A DNA stretch of 39,288 bases from a virus (lineage: Duplodnaviria > Caudoviricetes): the IMG/VR virus record IMGVR_UViG_3300014208_000078, positions 1-39,288 of that record. The stretch is one strand, 5' to 3'. How positions within the stretch are numbered: the stretch's first letter is position 1; each line of letters begins with the position of its first letter. The translations under genes were made by a program, and so were the position numbers. The notes beneath the pieces were generated by a model. The model had not been told where the DNA came from. It was given only the letters and a program-made list of their open reading frames with translations, and searched no databases. This document shows, piece by piece, positions 9,971 through 30,187 of this stretch.

Positions 9971-10074
9971 GAAGGTGTAAGCCTTGGATTCTTACAAAGT
10001 GCACCTGTAAGAACATTGGTAATGGCGCTTACTGATGGGTTAGAATAATGTGGGTTCGAGTCCCATCGCCTTCA
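9971..10074 (+). ncRNA. tRNA-like element (atypical or pseudo-tRNA)
   Basis: Acceptor stem GAAGGTG/CGCCTTC plus discriminator A; canonical T-arm GTGGG-TTCGAGT-CCCAT; oversized D region; poor anticodon arm. Confidence 0.55.
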
Positions 10075-10523: not shown

Positions 10524-10958
10524 ATGAGTAAGAAGTATACCGCAAAGCAATATGAACAGATCATTCGAGATGTTTTATGTGGTGCATTAGAGCACATGGA
10601 AGCAATAAAAAGAGAGATTGGTAAAATAGGTCCAATCAAAGAGGATAGCGATCCAAATCTAATGGCTCGCGCAAAAGTAATGCATCTAACGCTTACTTGT
10701 ATCAATGATATCATTCACCCAGCACATAAACTGCTTTATAAGATGTTTTCAGAAGAAGGCTACGAGTCTTACTTTGATGTATTGGTTAAGAACCATAAAG
10801 AGGCTATTGAAAAGAGCATAGTTCCTGCTTGTTATTGTAGTAATTGTGATCCTGACAAATTAAAAGCTAAAGCAAAGTTTGAAGAATTGAGCGCTTTAAA
10901 AAAGGAAGAGAATGACAAAGACATACGTGTCAAAAAGTCTGGAGAAGCAGTTAATTGA
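10524..10958 (+). CDS. Hypothetical protein with CxCxxC motif
   Basis: GGAG RBS; 144 aa. Confidence 0.6.
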   Translation: MSKKYTAKQYEQIIRDVLCGALEHMEAIKREIGKIGPIKEDSDPNLMARAKVMHLTLTCINDIIHPAHKLLYKMFSEEGYESYFDVLVKNHKEAIEKSIVPACYCSNCDPDKLKAKAKFEELSALKKEENDKDIRVKKSGEAVN

Positions 10959-11232
10959 TAGACATGATCTTAGTGGTAAGAAGTTTGGTAGATGGACAGT
11001 TATTTCTTATATAGGGGCTGGTGTTTATGAGACTCAATGTGATTGTGGTCATATGGGCACTAAAAAAACTACTGAGCTTACGCATATGAGATCTATTCAG
11101 TGTGCTCGTTGTAGAAGGAAAGAACTTATTGGTCTTAGAGATAGTAGTAAAGAATCTGGGAATGATGAGTTGGTAAGATCTAAATGGTCTAATTCAATTT
11201 ACTCCATACGCAAAGAGGATTTGGATGAGTAA
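10912..11232 (+). CDS. Protein with the N-terminal Zn-binding module of phage HNH endonucleases and no nuclease domain
   Basis: 'DLSGKKFGRWTVI...CDCG...CARC' resembles the N-terminal repeats of the HNH ORFs at 19129 and 20532. Confidence 0.55.
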   Translation: MTKTYVSKSLEKQLIDRHDLSGKKFGRWTVISYIGAGVYETQCDCGHMGTKKTTELTHMRSIQCARCRRKELIGLRDSSKESGNDELVRSKWSNSIYSIRKEDLDE

Positions 11233-14316: not shown

Positions 14317-16560
14317 ATGTTATTTCCCCAATTGGGCCCGGTCTACTATTCAGAAAAACATCAAAGTATATTGGCCAGAATGGAAGCGTTCTATGCAGAG
14401 AGTATAACCATAAATCAGTCTTTCTGGGCTGAAGCTGATACGGATACTCGATTTGAGACTGGTGATCAGACTTTATGGAATGATTTATATGGCAATCTTC
14501 CGGCTAATCGGGGAAGACAGTTTAATTTCAATCGTATTCGTCGCGTAATCAATATGATCTCAGGTCATCAAAGACGTAATCGTAAATCAACTATCGTTAC
14601 TCCAGTTGAAAATGGTGACGCTGAAACAGCTGATCAGTTTACTAAAGTCATGATGTGGATTAACAATCAAGAAAACGTACTTGATACTATAAGCGAATCA
14701 TTTCATGGAGCACTCGTTACTGGAATGAATCTACTTCAAGTTTGGGTAGATTATAGAAGTGATCCAGTATCGGGTAACATAAAAGTAGATAATTGTTCTT
14801 ATAATAGCTTTTTAATTGATCCCTATTTTCGAAAAGCTGATCTATCAGATTGCAATGCTTTATGGAAACGGTCGTTTTTAACTAAGCGTGAAGTGATCTC
14901 ACTACTTCCTGACCAATCAGAAGAGATCATTGGTCTTGTTGGTAATCAATCAGGTACTGGGAGGGATGGTAAATTTCAGTTCATAAACTAGTGTGAACTA
15001 TAAACCTTCTCTGATTGACTTGGAACTCCTTAGGGACAACAGGGCGGAAGCGAAAGCACCGTGAACGACTGAGTGAGAGGGCGCCGAAAGGTGATGCGAC
15101 AGTCTGAACTCTATAGTAATATAGAGAGGGAGATTCGAAGAAGTCTCCCCGCCACATAAGTGGTCACAAAAGTAACAGATTGGCCAGAATCATACAACTA
15201 CGGATATAAGAACTTACTAACGTATGATGAATTCTATTACCGTGATTATAGAACCCAGAAGATGCTATGTGACGCAGAAACTGGTGAGACCATGGAATGG
15301 AAAAGCGATAATCAAGAAGGTCTTGAAGCTTTTCTTATGCAATATCCATCAGTTACTGTTATAGAGTCTGAAGTACCAACGGTTAATCTTGCTATTGTTG
15401 TTCAAGGCAAGGTTATGTATGACGGTCCAAATCCAATTGGTACTGATAAGTATCCATTTGTTCCAGTGCTCGGTTATTACAATCCCCAGATGCCATATTT
15501 TCCATGGCGTATCCAGGGCGTTGTTAGGGGTCTTCGTGATGCTCAGTATTTATATAACCGAAGACGTATCATTGAACTTGATATCTTAGAGTCTCAAATT
15601 AACTCAGGCTGGATTTATAAAGAGAATGCTTTAGTTAATCCAAAAGATGTATTTATGTCTGGTCAAGGAAGAGGTCTTGCTCTTAAAGAAGATGCACAGA
15701 TGTCAGATGTTCAACAGATTATTGCTCCTCAAGTACCACCATCAATGATCCAATTGTCAGATTTACTCGCTAAAGAAGTTATGGAAATATCAGGGGTCAA
15801 TGAAGAATTACTTGGTTCAGCGATGGATGACAAGGCTGGTGTGTTGTCTATGCTACGACAAGGAGCTGGTCTTACAACGCTGCAAACGCTTTTTGATCAA
15901 CTTGATCGGTCTCAGAAGTTGCTGGGTGAAATAATAATTGATATAGTCCAAGCAAACTTTACTCCTGGTAAAATTAAACGAATCTTAGAAGAAGAAGAGC
16001 CGACTCCTCAGTTTTATAACAAGGCGTTTGGTAAATATAATGCAGTTGTTGAAGATGGTCTTAATACAAGTACACAAAAACAAATGCAATTTGCTCAGAT
16101 GTTACAGTTGCGTGAGGCTGGTGTTCCTATAACAACTCAAGATCTACTTGAAGCGGCTACTATCCAAGGTAAGAAGAAGATTATGGAAAATGCTGCTAAA
16201 CAAGAACAGCAAGCTCAGCAAATGCAGCAAATGCAGATGCAGTCTCAAATGCAACTGCAACAAGCTCAAATGGCAGATATGGAAGGTCGTCGGCAGGCAA
16301 ATATTGGTCTTGCGCATGAACGTGATTCAAGGGTTATGGAAAACTATTCTATGGCTGTTGAGCGCGAACATAAAGCAAATTCAGAAGATTCTGCTGCTGC
16401 ATTAGATCGTGTAAAAGCTCTGAAAGAATTAGAGTCTATGGATCTGACTCATTTACAAACACTTGTTGGATTGCTTTCTGGTTTGAAGGATCAAGAGACA
16501 GCTCAGTCTGAACAGGGAATGAAAAAAGTAGCTGCACAACCACTTCCTCAACAAGGATAA
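14317..16560 (+). CDS. Portal protein (P22-like), spliced: join(14317..14984,15183..16560), 681 aa
   Basis: 'FNFNRIRRVINMISGHQR' and 'YPFVPV..Y...GVVRGLRDAQYLYNRR' motifs, with a Gln-rich C-terminal barrel. Removing 14985-15182 gives in-frame ...KFQF-M-PESYNY... Confidence 0.9.
14985..15182 (+). ncRNA. Group I intron in portal gene (198 nt, no ORF)
   Basis: 5' exon ends in U and pairs AGUUCAU/GUGAACU with a U-G wobble; P3 CCUUCUC/GAGAGGG; P7 GACUG/CAGUC; terminal G; excision restores the frame. Confidence 0.9.
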
Positions 16561-18193: not shown

Positions 18194-19132
18194 ATGACTA
18201 AAAGACGAGGTCCATCAGTTGAGCAACGTGGTGAAATTGAAATGCCACCATTAGATCATCAATTCCCAGCAGAGATGGGAGTTCCTCAAGCCGCTCAAGC
18301 AGTAGAAGCAAGAGAAGTTGAGCAACTACAACAAGAGTATCAAGATCATGAACAAGAAGTTCTAGTAGAGCAAGACGAGCAATATCTTATTAATGAAGTA
18401 GCTCAAGAAGAACCAGAATTTTCTCCCACGCCAGTGGACCAATCCAGATTGGATTCCAATAAGAGACCAAAAACCAAAGAAGACAACTTCAGAGAAGTTC
18501 GTTTGGCTAAAGAAAGAGCAGAACGGGAACGGGACGCACTTATGTCTCAGATGCTCGAGATGCAGTCCAAATTACAGAACCAACAACAAGTTGCAAAACC
18601 TGTAGCTCCAGTAGAAGAAGAAAAAGATTGGTTTGATGGTCTTGATCCAGAGTCTTTAGTTGAAGGAAAGCAGCTTAAAAACATTGCTCAAGAGATGAAA
18701 GCAATGAAAAGGATGCTTAAAGAGCAACAAGCTCAGTCTCAAGAGATAGCAATGCAAGCAAAGATCAAAGCTCAATATCCAGACTTTGATGATGTGTTTA
18801 ATGCTCAGACTATTAGTAATTTAAATGAACAGTATCCAGATGTGGCTAATGCGCTTCGAGTAATGCCAGATGATTACAATAAAGCGACTGCTGCGTATAC
18901 TATGATTAAAAACTTAGGAATATATAAAGGGAACGAAGTGAAAAAACCTGCATATGAATCAGATATTTTAAGAGCTAAAGTTAATGCTGCTAAGCCAAGA
19001 CCTTTAGCATCAGTTAATCCACAACAAGGTGATAGCCCCCTATCAAAAGCTAATGCATTTGCTAATGGTTTAACACCAGACTTGAAAGCGCAAATGCTGA
19101 AGGAGATGCAGGCCGCGAGACGTGGTAACTAA
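18194..19132 (+). CDS. Putative capsid scaffolding protein
   Basis: Acidic, Gln/Glu-rich coiled coil; lies between portal and capsid; basic C-terminus. Confidence 0.6.
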   Translation: MTKRRGPSVEQRGEIEMPPLDHQFPAEMGVPQAAQAVEAREVEQLQQEYQDHEQEVLVEQDEQYLINEVAQEEPEFSPTPVDQSRLDSNKRPKTKEDNFREVRLAKERAERERDALMSQMLEMQSKLQNQQQVAKPVAPVEEEKDWFDGLDPESLVEGKQLKNIAQEMKAMKRMLKEQQAQSQEIAMQAKIKAQYPDFDDVFNAQTISNLNEQYPDVANALRVMPDDYNKATAAYTMIKNLGIYKGNEVKKPAYESDILRAKVNAAKPRPLASVNPQQGDSPLSKANAFANGLTPDLKAQMLKEMQAARRGN

Positions 19133-19770
19133 ATATTTTTTTTAGTTATTCTTCTATTGTTACAATTTTCTTTTCTGGTCGCCCATCTACAATTGGACGG
19201 TTCGTAATTACCATCATTGTTAATTCGATCTATTTCTTTTTTAGGTGGTCGACTTCCCATATCCTCCAAGAAATTTTCAAATTTAGACCATCTTTCACAA
19301 ACTTTAATTCCACGTCCACCGTAATTATGGTATCCGCTATCTTTTGGATTATTGCACCGTTGTCTCATTTGATGCCAAATGCCATAAATAGAACTTGTTG
19401 AAAGTTTATGAGTTGCAATCCTGCAGTGTTCGCAGCATTTAGAATTTCCTGCTAATAATTCTGATCCTCTTATTGTATAAACTCTTTTACAGTCGCATTC
19501 ACAAATATAAGAAGTTGTGTGCCTTTTTTCTTCAGATTTTTGTAAGACTTTCCATTTACCAAATGATTTTCCAATTATATCAAACGACCTGTCTTTGCTT
19601 TTTATTCGACAATCTAGACACCATTTATACTTTAATATATCTTCCTTTCTTTTGATTGATTCTGATCCACATATACATTTGCATCTATATCTTTTTATAT
19701 TGCTTTTAAGATCTAATCTTTTTGGCTCTTCGCTGATTATTGTCCAGTTTTCTATTTGTTTACTGATCAT
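19129..19770 (-). CDS. Free-standing HNH homing endonuclease
   Basis: Two CxC..CxxC N-terminal modules, then 'W.QMRQRCNNP....YHNYGGRGIKVCERW.KFENFLEDMG.RP....IDRINNDGNYEPSNCRWAT'; own promoter TTTACC-17 nt-TATACT on the minus strand near 19804-19829. Confidence 0.88.
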   Translation of the reverse strand: MISKQIENWTIISEEPKRLDLKSNIKRYRCKCICGSESIKRKEDILKYKWCLDCRIKSKDRSFDIIGKSFGKWKVLQKSEEKRHTTSYICECDCKRVYTIRGSELLAGNSKCCEHCRIATHKLSTSSIYGIWHQMRQRCNNPKDSGYHNYGGRGIKVCERWSKFENFLEDMGSRPPKKEIDRINNDGNYEPSNCRWATRKENCNNRRITKKNI

Positions 19771-20531: not shown

Positions 20532-21164
20532 TTAGATCTTTTTTTTGTTAATCCTAGTGTTGTTTAGATTTTCTTTTCTTGTGACCCATCTGCAGTTTTC
20601 TAATTCATAGTTTCCATTATTATTTGTTCGGTCTAACTCTAGACCACTGGGTTTTTGTCCCATATCTTCTAAGAAGTTTTCAAATTTTAACCAACGATCA
20701 CAAACTGTAATTCCGCGTCCGCCATAATCTTTAAACTTAGTTTGATTTGGGTTTGTGCATCTTTGTATCATAGACCCCCAAGTGGTATATGTTCTGGAGT
20801 GAACCATTCCATGCTTAGTTGACCCGCATTTTCTGCAGGCTGTTGAATCGCCAAATCTTAATCTTATACCTTTGAGTTGTTTGATAAATCCACATTCACA
20901 TTGAACTTCGTAGCACGATCTTTTATCTTCTGAGGCTACTCGTTTTAAGACGGTCCATTGGCCAAACTTATCTCCTCTTTTTAGTTCTTTGTCTTGATAT
21001 TTGCATGAGCTACAGGATTTAGAAGCTTGTCTTTTTAGTTGATCATCCCTAACTTCTCTTTTAAATCCACAATTACATATACATAGATATAGTATTTTTT
21101 TTTCTTTTCTTCGCGAAAGATTTATAACCTTCCAATTGGCATACTGCTTTCCTATTATAATCAT
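20532..21164 (-). CDS. Free-standing HNH homing endonuclease (paralog of 19129-19770)
   Basis: 'WGSMIQRCTNP....KDYGGRGITVCDRWLKFENFLEDMG.KP...ELDRTNNNGNYELENCRWVT'. Confidence 0.88.
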   Translation of the reverse strand: MIIIGKQYANWKVINLSRRKEKKILYLCICNCGFKREVRDDQLKRQASKSCSSCKYQDKELKRGDKFGQWTVLKRVASEDKRSCYEVQCECGFIKQLKGIRLRFGDSTACRKCGSTKHGMVHSRTYTTWGSMIQRCTNPNQTKFKDYGGRGITVCDRWLKFENFLEDMGQKPSGLELDRTNNNGNYELENCRWVTRKENLNNTRINKKKI

Positions 21165-21212: not shown

Positions 21213-21302
21213 TAAGCGTTATCGAGAAGTCGCTTATCTCAAAAACTTCGGCGTATTCTGAGCTTCGCCATCTCAACGACGTACAAAGATCTCGTCAGTC
21301 TT
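21213..21302 (+). promoter_or_regulatory. Three tandem pseudoknot-like units in the capsid 5' leader
   Basis: Interleaved stems UAAGCG/CGCUUA with GAGA/UCUC; GGCG/CGCC with UGAG/CUCA; GACG/CGUC with AAGAU/GUCUU. Confidence 0.55.
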
Positions 21303-21379
21303 AAGTATATAGTAAAACCCAAAAATGATCCACTAATAAAGTGACAGTTTTGGAAAATATTTAAACTTAAGGAGCCTAT

Positions 21380-23000
21380 ATGGCTATAACTACTACTAGC
21401 TCGTTGCCAGCGCCTGTACAACAGTCGTTTAGCTACAAGCTTTTGTCAGTTCCAGTTCCGTCTATGATTCATTAACTAAATTTGTGAATCTAAAACCCTC
21501 TCTGATTGACTTGGATAGCCGATGGGCCGACAAGGGGCAAGCGTAATGGTAGCCTGAACGACTGAGCGAGAGGGGCTCTTGAAAAAGAGTATGCGACAGT
21601 CTGCTCATGGACTATATATGAAATCCATGAGGCTGGATCGAAGAATCTGGCCCGCCTGAAAAGGTCAGTAAGCGAAAGCTGAAAGTAACAGAATGAAAAT
21701 TCCAGCGATGCTAAAAAACATGCCTCGTAATGGTGGTACAACTCTACGTATGCGTAGATATAATCCACTTGCAACAGCTCTTGTTCCATTAGGAAACACT
21801 GGCGTTACTCCCCCAGCACAACAATTAACTGCTGTGGATATTGATGCTAAAATCTCTTTCTACGGTTTCAATTAGGTGCCGTAGAATTGATTCTGAATAG
21901 ACCTACGTTATCCTTAATGAACAGGTAACGTTACAGAATCAAGATCCCGTTAAGAGAAAAAGCGGGATTAAAACCCTCTCTGATTGACTTGGAAGCCCGA
22001 TGGGGTGACAAGGCGGAAGGCGAAAGCCACCGTGAACGACTTAGCGAGAGGGGCTCTGCAACTTACCAGAGCATGCGAAAGTCTGAGCACGAACTATATA
22101 TGAAATTCGTGAGGTTGATCCGAAGAGGTTGGCCCGCCTAAGCAATTAGGTCACAAAAGTAACAGAATGTTTGAATGAAGCTGCTGCTCGTTTAGGTGTT
22201 TCTCTTCGTCAAACAGAAGATGAACTAACAAGAGATATGCTTGCTTCAACAGCAGCGTTTATCAACTGTACAGCTGGTGTGAACGGCGACAACCCGACTG
22301 AATTAACTCGTTCAGATGTTGATGATGTAGTTCGTGCTTTGCTTGGAAACAATGCATACACGATCTTAGACAACATTGAAGGGGAAGATAAATTTGGTAC
22401 AGCTCCTGTTCGTGATGCGTATTTTGCGCTTTGCCATACAGATCTTACTAAAGATATGGACTCAGTTGATGGATTCATTCAAAAGAATCAATATCCATCT
22501 CCTATGAATGCATTGCGTTCAGAATGGGGTGCAATTGGTAACTTGAGATTCTTAGTTTCATCTATTGGATCAATCACTCAATCTGCTTCAAACTTAGGCG
22601 CGAACGTGTATAACATTTTCTGCGTAGGTATGGAAGCTTATGCTTGTATTGAGCAAGACGGTAAATATTGCTGTCTATAAATTTTCTCTGATTGACTTGG
22701 AAGCCCTACGGGGTGACAAGGGGCAAGCGAAAGCAGCCTGAACGACTAAGTGAGAAAACTCTGAAAAGAGAAGCGATAGTCTGAACTCATATGAAAGTAT
22801 GAGAGGGAGATCCGAAGAGGTTTCCCCGCCCAGAAGTGGGTCACAAAAGTAACAGAATGTATAGCGCAAGCTTTATCTATCGTCCTCCAATGTACGATGG
22901 ACCTTTGGCTCTTAATGCTTCTGTTGGTTACAAGTTTGCTGAAGTACCTCGTATTCTCAATGACCTTTGGGTATTGAATCTACGTTGCACATTAGCGTAA
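21380..23000 (+). CDS. Major capsid protein (N4-gp56-like), spliced: join(21380..21472,21696..21866,21901..21950,22170..22662,22860..23000), 315 aa
   Basis: AAGGAG RBS; exons total 948 nt = 316 codons with no internal stop. Junctions read SMIH|KIPAM, ISFYG|TYVIL, QDPV|LNEAA, EQDG|YSASF. Motifs 'KNMPRNGGTTLRMRRY', 'AYFALCHTDL', 'SEWGAIGNLRFLVS' and 'SVGYKF' are capsid-like. Confidence 0.88.
21473..21695 (+). ncRNA. Group I intron 1 of capsid gene (223 nt, no ORF)
   Basis: P1 GAUUCAU/GUGAAUC with U-G at the splice site; P3 CCCUCUC/GAGAGGG; P7 GACUG/CAGUC; ends AAGUAACAGAAUG. Confidence 0.9.
21867..21900 (+). other. 34-nt core-less mini-intron (P1 + P10 + terminal G only)
   Basis: The guide at 21873-21886 pairs 9 bp with the 5' exon (U-G at the junction) and 5 bp with the 3' exon; the insert ends in G; it contains an in-frame TAG and shifts the frame; excision restores FYG-TYVILNEQV. 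Confidence 0.75.
21951..22169 (+). ncRNA. Group I intron (third insertion) of capsid gene (219 nt, no ORF)
   Basis: P1 AUCCCGU/GCGGGAU; P3 CCCUCUC/GAGAGGG; P7 GACUU/AAGUC; ends AAGUAACAGAAUG. Confidence 0.9.
22663..22859 (+). ncRNA. Group I intron (fourth insertion) of capsid gene (197 nt, no ORF)
   Basis: P1 AGACGGU/GCUGUCU; P3 UUUUCUC/GAGAAAA; P7 GACUA/UAGUC; ends AAGUAACAGAAUG. Confidence 0.9.
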
Positions 23001-29597: not shown

Positions 29598-30143
29598 TCA
29601 TAATAAAAGTTTTCTTTTATGCCTTACTTTATATTTCATATTGATTTCTGAAATTGATGATAGTCCAATATTTAATAATTTTGCTATATCACTTTGAAAA
29701 AGGCCTTCTCGTAACAAATTGACAACTTTTTTCTGTAAGTCTTCATCGATAAAATAACCTGGATGATTTTTACCTTTGTTACTTCTTAGTCCTATCTTAA
29801 AAGCATGCTTTACGTTATCACTTCTAGTGCTTAATTCTAAGTTATCCAAATTGTTATTAGTTTTATTACCATCTATATGATTAATTTCTTCTTTAGTACA
29901 ACCTAAAAATGTTTTAGCTATTAATCTGTGAGATAATTGCATTAATCCTTTTCCGTTTTTCCTTAAATTAACATGTAGATAACCATCTCTTCTGAGAGCG
30001 GGAGATAGTTTTTTTAGCGGCAAATTCCACTCATATCTTCTATCAGACCATCCATTTGTTTTCATAATAGTTCTTGCTAGTGCATATATATTTCCATATA
30101 TATCGCATGCATATATACCTTCATAGCCAGGAATTTGTTTCAT
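29598..30143 (-). CDS. NUMOD4-HNH homing endonuclease with C-terminal HTH
   Basis: 'KQIPGYEGIY....GNI' (NUMOD4) and 'HRLIAKTF...INHIDGNKTNNNLDNLE...N.KHA'; GGAGA RBS before ATG at 30143. Confidence 0.9.
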   Translation of the reverse strand: MKQIPGYEGIYACDIYGNIYALARTIMKTNGWSDRRYEWNLPLKKLSPALRRDGYLHVNLRKNGKGLMQLSHRLIAKTFLGCTKEEINHIDGNKTNNNLDNLELSTRSDNVKHAFKIGLRSNKGKNHPGYFIDEDLQKKVVNLLREGLFQSDIAKLLNIGLSSISEINMKYKVRHKRKLLL

Positions 30144-30187
30144 ATATCTCCCTACGGTTATCATAACTGTTTAGAGTATACACAATA

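Follow-up and report, generated by a model that had tools for sequence, protein, structure and literature searches.

How does a phage make its major capsid protein from a gene that is broken by a 34-nt insert, when the insert is too short to hold the core of a ribozyme? The window (the whole stretch of DNA that we analysed) is a virus record of 39,288 bases that is estimated to be complete and that encodes tailed-phage genes (terminase, portal, endolysin, head, and tail). Its major capsid gene (21380-23000, + strand) has five exons, and according to a spliced alignment with a profile of 104 homologs, these are separated by inserts of 223, 34, 219, and 197 nt. Removal of the four inserts yields a protein of 315 amino acids, of which 309 are identical in an intron-free homolog (P0001), and the codons differ from those of locus L001 by 66 synonymous and 6 non-synonymous changes. 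The product belongs to PHROG 1357 (major head protein), and N4-gp56 family names are found among its homologs. There is no second copy of the capsid gene in the 39,288-base record. A separately assembled contig of run X1, which may be the source sample, has 0 differences from the window over 21300-22548 (this compares contigs, not raw reads). Elsewhere in the window, positions 9971-10074 have a weak, sub-threshold tRNA-like match in Rfam (24.9 bits, E = 0.5). Relatives of the capsid gene include 18 matches in genome bins (L381-L398), with mixed labels (four Chlamydiae, one Babeliales, one Legionellales, and others) and mostly on contigs of phage size or less; there is a weak hint that the hosts are intracellular bacteria of protists.

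The capsid gene and the predicted splicing elements are laid out as follows:

21380..21472, + strand: capsid exon 1, codons 1-31 (spliced alignment with the profile of 104 homologs)
21473..21695, + strand: upstream full group I-type intron, 223 nt, without a complement to the tether and not the likely helper
21696..21866, + strand: exon 2, with last codon Gly88; 21858-21866 is the 5' strand of the mini-intron's P1
21867..21900, + strand: core-less mini-intron, 34 nt, last base G21900 (spliced alignment; at least 79 distinct inserts at this site, including its own)
21873..21886, + strand: internal guide of the mini-intron, with the P10 strand at 21873-21877, the wobble G at 21878, and then the P1 strand to 21886 (based on pair tables with compensatory changes)
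21887..21895, + strand: tether strand of the mini-intron, whose first base is 9 nt after the wobble G
21901..21950, + strand: exon 3, 50 nt, with the P10 partner (21901-21905), the tether partner (21934-21942), and the 5' strand of the helper's P1 (21943-21950)
21951..22169, + strand: downstream full group I-type intron, 219 nt, the likely helper ribozyme, with terminal G22169
21962-21969, 21974/22052, and 22038/22083, + strand: guide, P3, and P7 of the helper intron (covariation of P3-P9)
22170..22662, + strand: capsid exon 4 (PHROG 1357 major head protein)
22663..22859, + strand: third full group I-type capsid intron, 197 nt (spliced alignment)
22860..23000, + strand: capsid exon 5, stop codon included (spliced alignment)

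The short insert lies between Gly88 and Thr89, brings in a stop after two codons, and shifts the frame. The initial annotation described it as a candidate group I intron without a catalytic core, and we agree with its account of the parts: the coordinates, the length, the in-frame TAG, and the break in the frame are as it gave them, and so are the 9-bp P1 (21858-21866 with 21878-21886, with U21866-G21878 as the sole wobble), the 5-bp P10 (21873-21877 with 21901-21905), the terminal G at 21900, and the distances to the flanking introns (171 nt to the upstream one, 21473-21695, and 50 nt to the downstream one, 21951-22169). In group I introns, P1, P10, and the terminal G set the splice sites, and P3-P9 do the chemistry (accessible text of PMC6155759). 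P3-P9, with the guanosine site in P7, are indeed absent from the 34 nt, and some members of this insert family are as short as 28 nt. The combination of a 9-bp hairpin capped by U-G and a 5-bp P10 after a G occurs at one place on the + strand of the window, and 30 dinucleotide shuffles of the window gave it once in total (mean 0.03). By itself, the 9-bp hairpin is not rare in the window (3 observed vs. 1.7 expected).

Could the insert splice itself? The PaSSU introns, including the 67-nt intron of Phialophora, are reported to splice in vitro with P1, P7, P10, and a helix that pairs the intron's middle with the 3' exon (accessible part of PMC3160393). However, our insert does not fold stably by itself (-1.6 kcal/mol, z = +0.8), and no P7 is possible in the 28-nt members of the family because the loop, guide, tether, and tail use every base. 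Self-splicing would also leave the strict dependence on a downstream intron (see below) unaccounted for, and we consider its likelihood to be close to negligible. As a class assignment, the PaSSU-type small fungal intron was rejected: the insert has no space for P7, ends in G and not U, and is in phage mRNA and not rDNA.

Related phages have inserts at the same place. Among the best 80 of 595 matches to capsid loci in viral contigs, 14 have an insert of 30-38 nt at exactly the window's site, and none of the 80 has a short insert at any other capsid site. We also saw no other short frame breaks in the window's genes in comparison with two relatives (by eye, shared genes only). Further loci came from pattern scans that were keyed on the guide, with P1 and the first two pairs of P10 being part of the patterns (119 of about 220 and 120 of about 2300 matches were used), and from scans that were keyed on the downstream intron. 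Loci without capsid homology were left out (65 of the 119 and 111 of the 120 from the guide scans, plus L371). The boundaries of one insert (L329) were placed by hand, and an additional insert of 37 nt (L398) is outside all of the counts. The resulting family has at least 122 loci and at least 79 distinct inserts, with lengths of 28-75 nt. An exact search of viral contigs for the window's 34-mer gave 0 matches; the insert of L017 has the last 25 nt in common with it.

The gene is disrupted by all 79 of the listed distinct inserts, through a frameshift in 60 and through a stop in each of the 19 that stay in frame. Once spliced, the full-length distinct genes that bear an insert are free of stops and frameshifts in 30 of 30 cases. 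Homologs align as F-Y-G-T-Y across the junction, on which the initial annotation had made its proposal depend, and the relatives show the three states that it suggested looking for: no insert, a full intron, and a covarying mini-insert. Specifically, L116 and L406 have full introns (706 nt and 731 nt, respectively) with the same guide at this site, and a full intron is likely the ancestral state. No insert-free locus resembles an insert-bearing one closely enough to be its spliced copy (the best is 96.4% identical, and the window's best is 90.6%). Some longer mini-introns of 48-75 nt (L333, L334, L339, L344, L355, and others) have extra hairpins in the P1 loop that resemble the loop of the full intron L406; they are mostly on deep branches and are perhaps an earlier stage.

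These data also bear on whether the ribosome hops over the insert, as it does in gene 60 of T4, or whether the genes are simply dead. Either would fit with a stop just two codons into the insert. But the codon before the resumed frame is a TAG stop, which cannot be a landing site, and the insert lengths of 28-75 nt cover all three frames; the spliced genes are intact in 30 of 30 cases; and the gene has two further introns that need to be spliced in any case. We view hopping or gene death as highly improbable. A translational bypass element was separately rejected, as matched take-off and landing codons around the stop are absent and the codon before the resumed frame is TAG. The insert is real and conserved and is very probably removed by splicing.

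We examined the splice signals in 42 inserts from searches that were not keyed on the guide. The U-G pair is present in 42 of 42, as is the terminal G, and the third pair of P10 is Watson-Crick in 42 of 42, with four types of pair. Positions 4 and 5 of P1 have two-sided changes in 3 and 5 divergent rows, respectively. Across the 79 listed distinct inserts, the U-G, P1, and the terminal G are kept in all 79 (the aligner gave a small bonus for G, and we also read the base before the resumed codon directly), and the third P10 pair is Watson-Crick in all 79, with all four types represented (49, 10, 10, and 10). The pair depends on the Thr codon's third base, which is free to vary. When mapped on a tree of the DNA of the upstream exon, the base in the guide, its partner in the exon, and the pair itself undergo 23 changes each, which implies that the two bases change jointly; this tree is weak (stars on 9 of 75 branches), which inflates the number of changes and not the coupling. 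The class of helper is not clustered on this weak tree (23 changes vs. 22 if shuffled). Taken as a comparative result, the splice signals are under selection.

If the insert has no core, which ribozyme might remove it? Among the best 80 of 595 loci, a full intron is present within 90 nt downstream in 14 of 14 loci with inserts vs. 10 of 66 others, while an intron is present upstream in 4 of 14 vs. 10 of 64 others. The 14 loci amount to about 10 distinct inserts that are kin to each other, so the P value of 1e-9 for the downstream intron (Fisher's exact test) overstates their independence. Searches that were blind to the helper gave 56 distinct inserts, and a helper was called for 54 of these; one more was resolved later, and for the last one, the contig stops exactly at the expected splice site. 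Among the matches listed, we found no insert that lacks a tethered intron downstream. At 12 of 34 loci, an intron at codon 97 is present and the insert is absent, and the intron at codon 105 (phase 2) is accompanied by an upstream insert at 24 of 24 capsid loci. Judging by these occurrences, the dependence is one-way in most helper classes.

The insert and its helper may also move together. The loci L024 and L029 are 97.8% and 99.7% identical in their flanking kilobases, and L029 has neither the insert nor the helper; 16 of the 34 exon differences are in codons 80-106. This pattern is consistent with the gain or loss of insert and helper as one cassette by co-conversion. Furthermore, 28 of 37 helpers of measurable length are over 400 nt, which is long enough for a homing endonuclease gene, and the mini-intron would spread with its helper by homing-linked co-conversion.

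Introns of this length could instead encode a protein that removes the insert, such as a maturase-like factor, or a nuclease and a ligase from the host or the phage could do so, with the group I signals being relics. However, the window's helper is just 219 nt and has no space for such a gene. Also, compensatory changes preserve the U-G, P10, and terminal G, features that group I chemistry alone is known to need. A pairing of the two splice sites that resembles a bulge-helix-bulge was not seen (by eye). We think that removal by a protein is very unlikely.

A feature that the initial annotation missed suggests how the insert might be linked to one particular intron. The tail of the insert (21887-21895) has a sole perfect Watson-Crick partner on the whole + strand, at 21934-21942, and this partner abuts the 8-bp P1 of the intron at 21951-22169. 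We call this putative helix the tether. In the minimum-energy fold of 21850-21975, the mini-intron's P1, the tether, and the helper's P1 form three helices in a row (z = -5.6; none of 200 shuffles did equally well), and two relatives show a similar fold. In the family as a whole, the usual distance is 9 nt from the wobble G to the tether (57 of 77) and 8 nt from the tether to the 5' splice site of the helper (60 of 77); both counts include four rows that were wrongly labelled as having a helper at codon 93.

In this fixed register, at least 8 of the 9 tether pairs form at 43 of the 52 loci whose helper is at codon 97, 18 of 20 with the helper at codon 105 (phase 2), 4 of 4 at codon 117, and 1 of 1 at codon 105 (phase 0). 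The exceptions (9 of 52 and 2 of 20) are due to one-base shifts or mismatches. If exon partners are swapped within the codon-97 class, 15% still pair this well, and across classes, less than 1% do; within the 105 and 117 classes, 73% and 100% of swapped partners pair, and much of the pairing in these two classes is common to the members through conservation. Sliding the register by 1-3 nt reduces the mean to 2-5 pairs of 9. The total number of Watson-Crick pairs in the tether was 399, as compared to 266 ± 9 in permuted data (maximum 303 in 20,000 permutations), and a second total was 162, as compared to 138 ± 4 (maximum 153). Because the fixed-register pairing follows four helper sites, the tail swaps its entire sequence with the position of the helper. 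At L405, the tail skips the nearer intron and matches the exon that precedes the second intron downstream.

Alternatively, any group I ribozyme (such as an intron that was cut out of the capsid or portal transcript) might splice the mini-intron in trans, and the tail helix might have another role, for instance to restrain the downstream intron or to shield exon 3. The window's genome has four similar full introns. Acceptance of guides and substrates in trans by group I cores is described in the accessible parts of both PMC2709566 and PMC6155759. The intron at codon 105 (phase 2), which is always found with an upstream insert, could also mean that the helix serves the downstream intron. In contrast, the regular 9-nt and 8-nt spacings suit positioning rather than a mere block, no insert was found without the tethered intron among the matches listed, and codon-97 introns do occur without inserts. 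We consider splicing by a free ribozyme to be unlikely. The initial annotation had left open whether the helper was the upstream intron, the downstream intron, or an excised intron in trans. Its helper-dependent reading is supported, with the downstream intron as the likely helper; an upstream or trans helper is disfavoured because upstream introns do not co-occur and because the covarying tether points to one downstream intron.

Is the downstream intron a plausible ribozyme? Across 14 introns, the P3-P9 pairs of the helper are kept in 96.5% of 451 cells, and 20 of 33 core pairs show two-sided changes, with slid controls at 38-49% (the core structure was drawn by hand from 21951-22169, and P4 and P7 are mostly invariant). 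As expected of a group I intron, 21951-22169 has covarying P3, P4, P5, P6, P7, P8, and P9. There is no match to the group I model of Rfam at E values of up to 1 for the whole window or up to 10 for 21400-22950. On the strength of the covarying core, it is plausible that 21951-22169 is a ribozyme. We did not see a feature in the alignment of 14 introns that distinguishes helpers from other introns.

More broadly, the compact introns of about 200 nt (21473-21695, 21951-22169, 22663-22859, and related loci) lack P2 and have a conserved GUAA near the 3' end. Rfam misses these introns, and in this capsid family more than a dozen sites carry introns. The window's portal gene is interrupted as well, by a fourth compact intron of group I type (14985-15182, 198 nt). 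The window also contains four free-standing genes for HNH-type endonucleases (19129-19770, 20532-21164, and 29598-30164 on the - strand and 10912-11232 on the + strand), two of which are encoded on the strand opposite to the capsid gene and just upstream of it; these enzymes might mobilise the introns that have no endonuclease of their own. Among helpers at codon 97, 32 of 52 (L006, L042, L110, and others) have a long P1 loop with an invariant UCUUUGA (32 of 32). In all 32, the loop is also complementary to about 12-18 nt of the intron's own 3' exon (mean of -16.8 kcal/mol vs. -13.1 if swapped, 19 loci), and it looks like an extended P10 and is similar to the tail of the 105-type mini-introns.

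Overall, there is a strong probability that the 34-nt insert is a remnant of a group I intron that has no core and is excised in cis by the tethered ribozyme at 21951-22169. The evidence is joint and comes from sequence comparison: three complementarities, fixed spacing, covariation, and co-occurrence. The mini-intron would have arisen from a full intron at its site that lost the core. Cores of group I introns cleave P1 hairpins that are supplied in trans. A core can also draw its guide from a second strand (PMC2709566). In the proposed mechanism, the tether and the helper's P1 would stack to form one continuous helix on exon 3, and the base of the mini-intron's P1 would sit where the helper's P1 enters the core. 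The distance to the U-G is nearly equal for the two (9 vs. 8 nt), so the P1 of the mini-intron could dock in place of the helper's, and the two P1 helices would alternate in the active site. Guanosine would cut after U21866, and P10 would then form; G21900 would enter the guanosine site in the helper's P7, and exon 2 would be joined to exon 3. P10 with exon 3 would direct the joining to exon 3 and not a skip to exon 4. If the mini-intron were removed first, with free GTP, the product would be a 35-nt RNA that is capped by G; if the helper were removed first but stayed held by P1 and the tether, it would use its own freed 3' G, which would give a fusion of helper and mini-intron.

We think it probable that these inserts form a natural class of passive, non-autonomous introns of 28-75 nt that consist of splice-site helices and a retargetable address tag and are excised by a neighbouring ribozyme, with one group I core serving two introns and the pair spreading as one cassette. 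If this is correct, then one ribozyme removes two introns, and catalyst and substrate can separate within the group I lineage. A split of this kind has long been proposed for how spliceosomal introns arose from group II introns, and the mini-intron would be a step, taken with RNA only, on the way from introns that splice themselves to introns with a separate splicing machine. The unit is about 310 nt (21858-22169), and the tether rule, with its 9-nt offset after the wobble G and its 8-nt offset before the splice site of the helper, would be a natural design for excising short pieces of RNA in a programmable way. In genome annotation, inserts of this kind give essential phage genes the appearance of pseudogenes.

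How does the mini-intron compare to known systems? Self-splicing group I introns are found in phage protein genes such as td, nrdB, and sunY of T4. The mini-insert has the same U-G in P1, P10, and terminal G as the phage introns, as well as the site and guide of the full introns L116 and L406, but it has no P3-P9 core and it has a tether helix to the P1 of another intron. Natural group I introns are described as cis-splicing ribozymes that remove themselves (accessible text of PMC6155759). In our search of the accessible literature, we found engineered analogues but no natural helper-spliced group I intron, and the sole match for "mini-intron" was a remark in an annotation.

Ribozymes engineered from group I introns cut out internal segments as long as 28 nt or 100 nt by using P1, P10, and P9.0 or P9.2 (accessible part of PMC4094466). 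In these trans excision-splicing ribozymes, as in spliceozymes (PMC6155759), a core removes a non-catalytic segment and joins the flanks, as we propose here; but as described in the accessible parts of PMC4094466 and PMC6155759, those systems are designed, act in trans, and bring their own guide. The precedent is only partial because the guide there belongs to the ribozyme, while here it belongs to the substrate, which is also predicted to form a natural helix with a helper that is on the same transcript and would also have to splice itself. The nearest natural case that we found is PaSSU, the introns of 63-75 nt in fungal SSU rDNA (PMC3160393), which are also short deletion remnants with P1, P10, and a helix that pairs the intron's middle with the 3' exon. 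In contrast to the mini-insert, they reportedly keep P7, end in U, and splice themselves, and they are in the rRNA of eukaryotes, and the accessible part of that study proposes no helper intron.

The group III introns of Euglena and MITEs likewise rely on parts from elsewhere, for splicing or for mobility. Group III introns derive from group II introns. Trans-spliced (split) group I introns reportedly occur in the mitochondria of Isoetes, and these too obtain parts from elsewhere, but a split intron has one core and one splicing event, whereas here one core would serve two introns.
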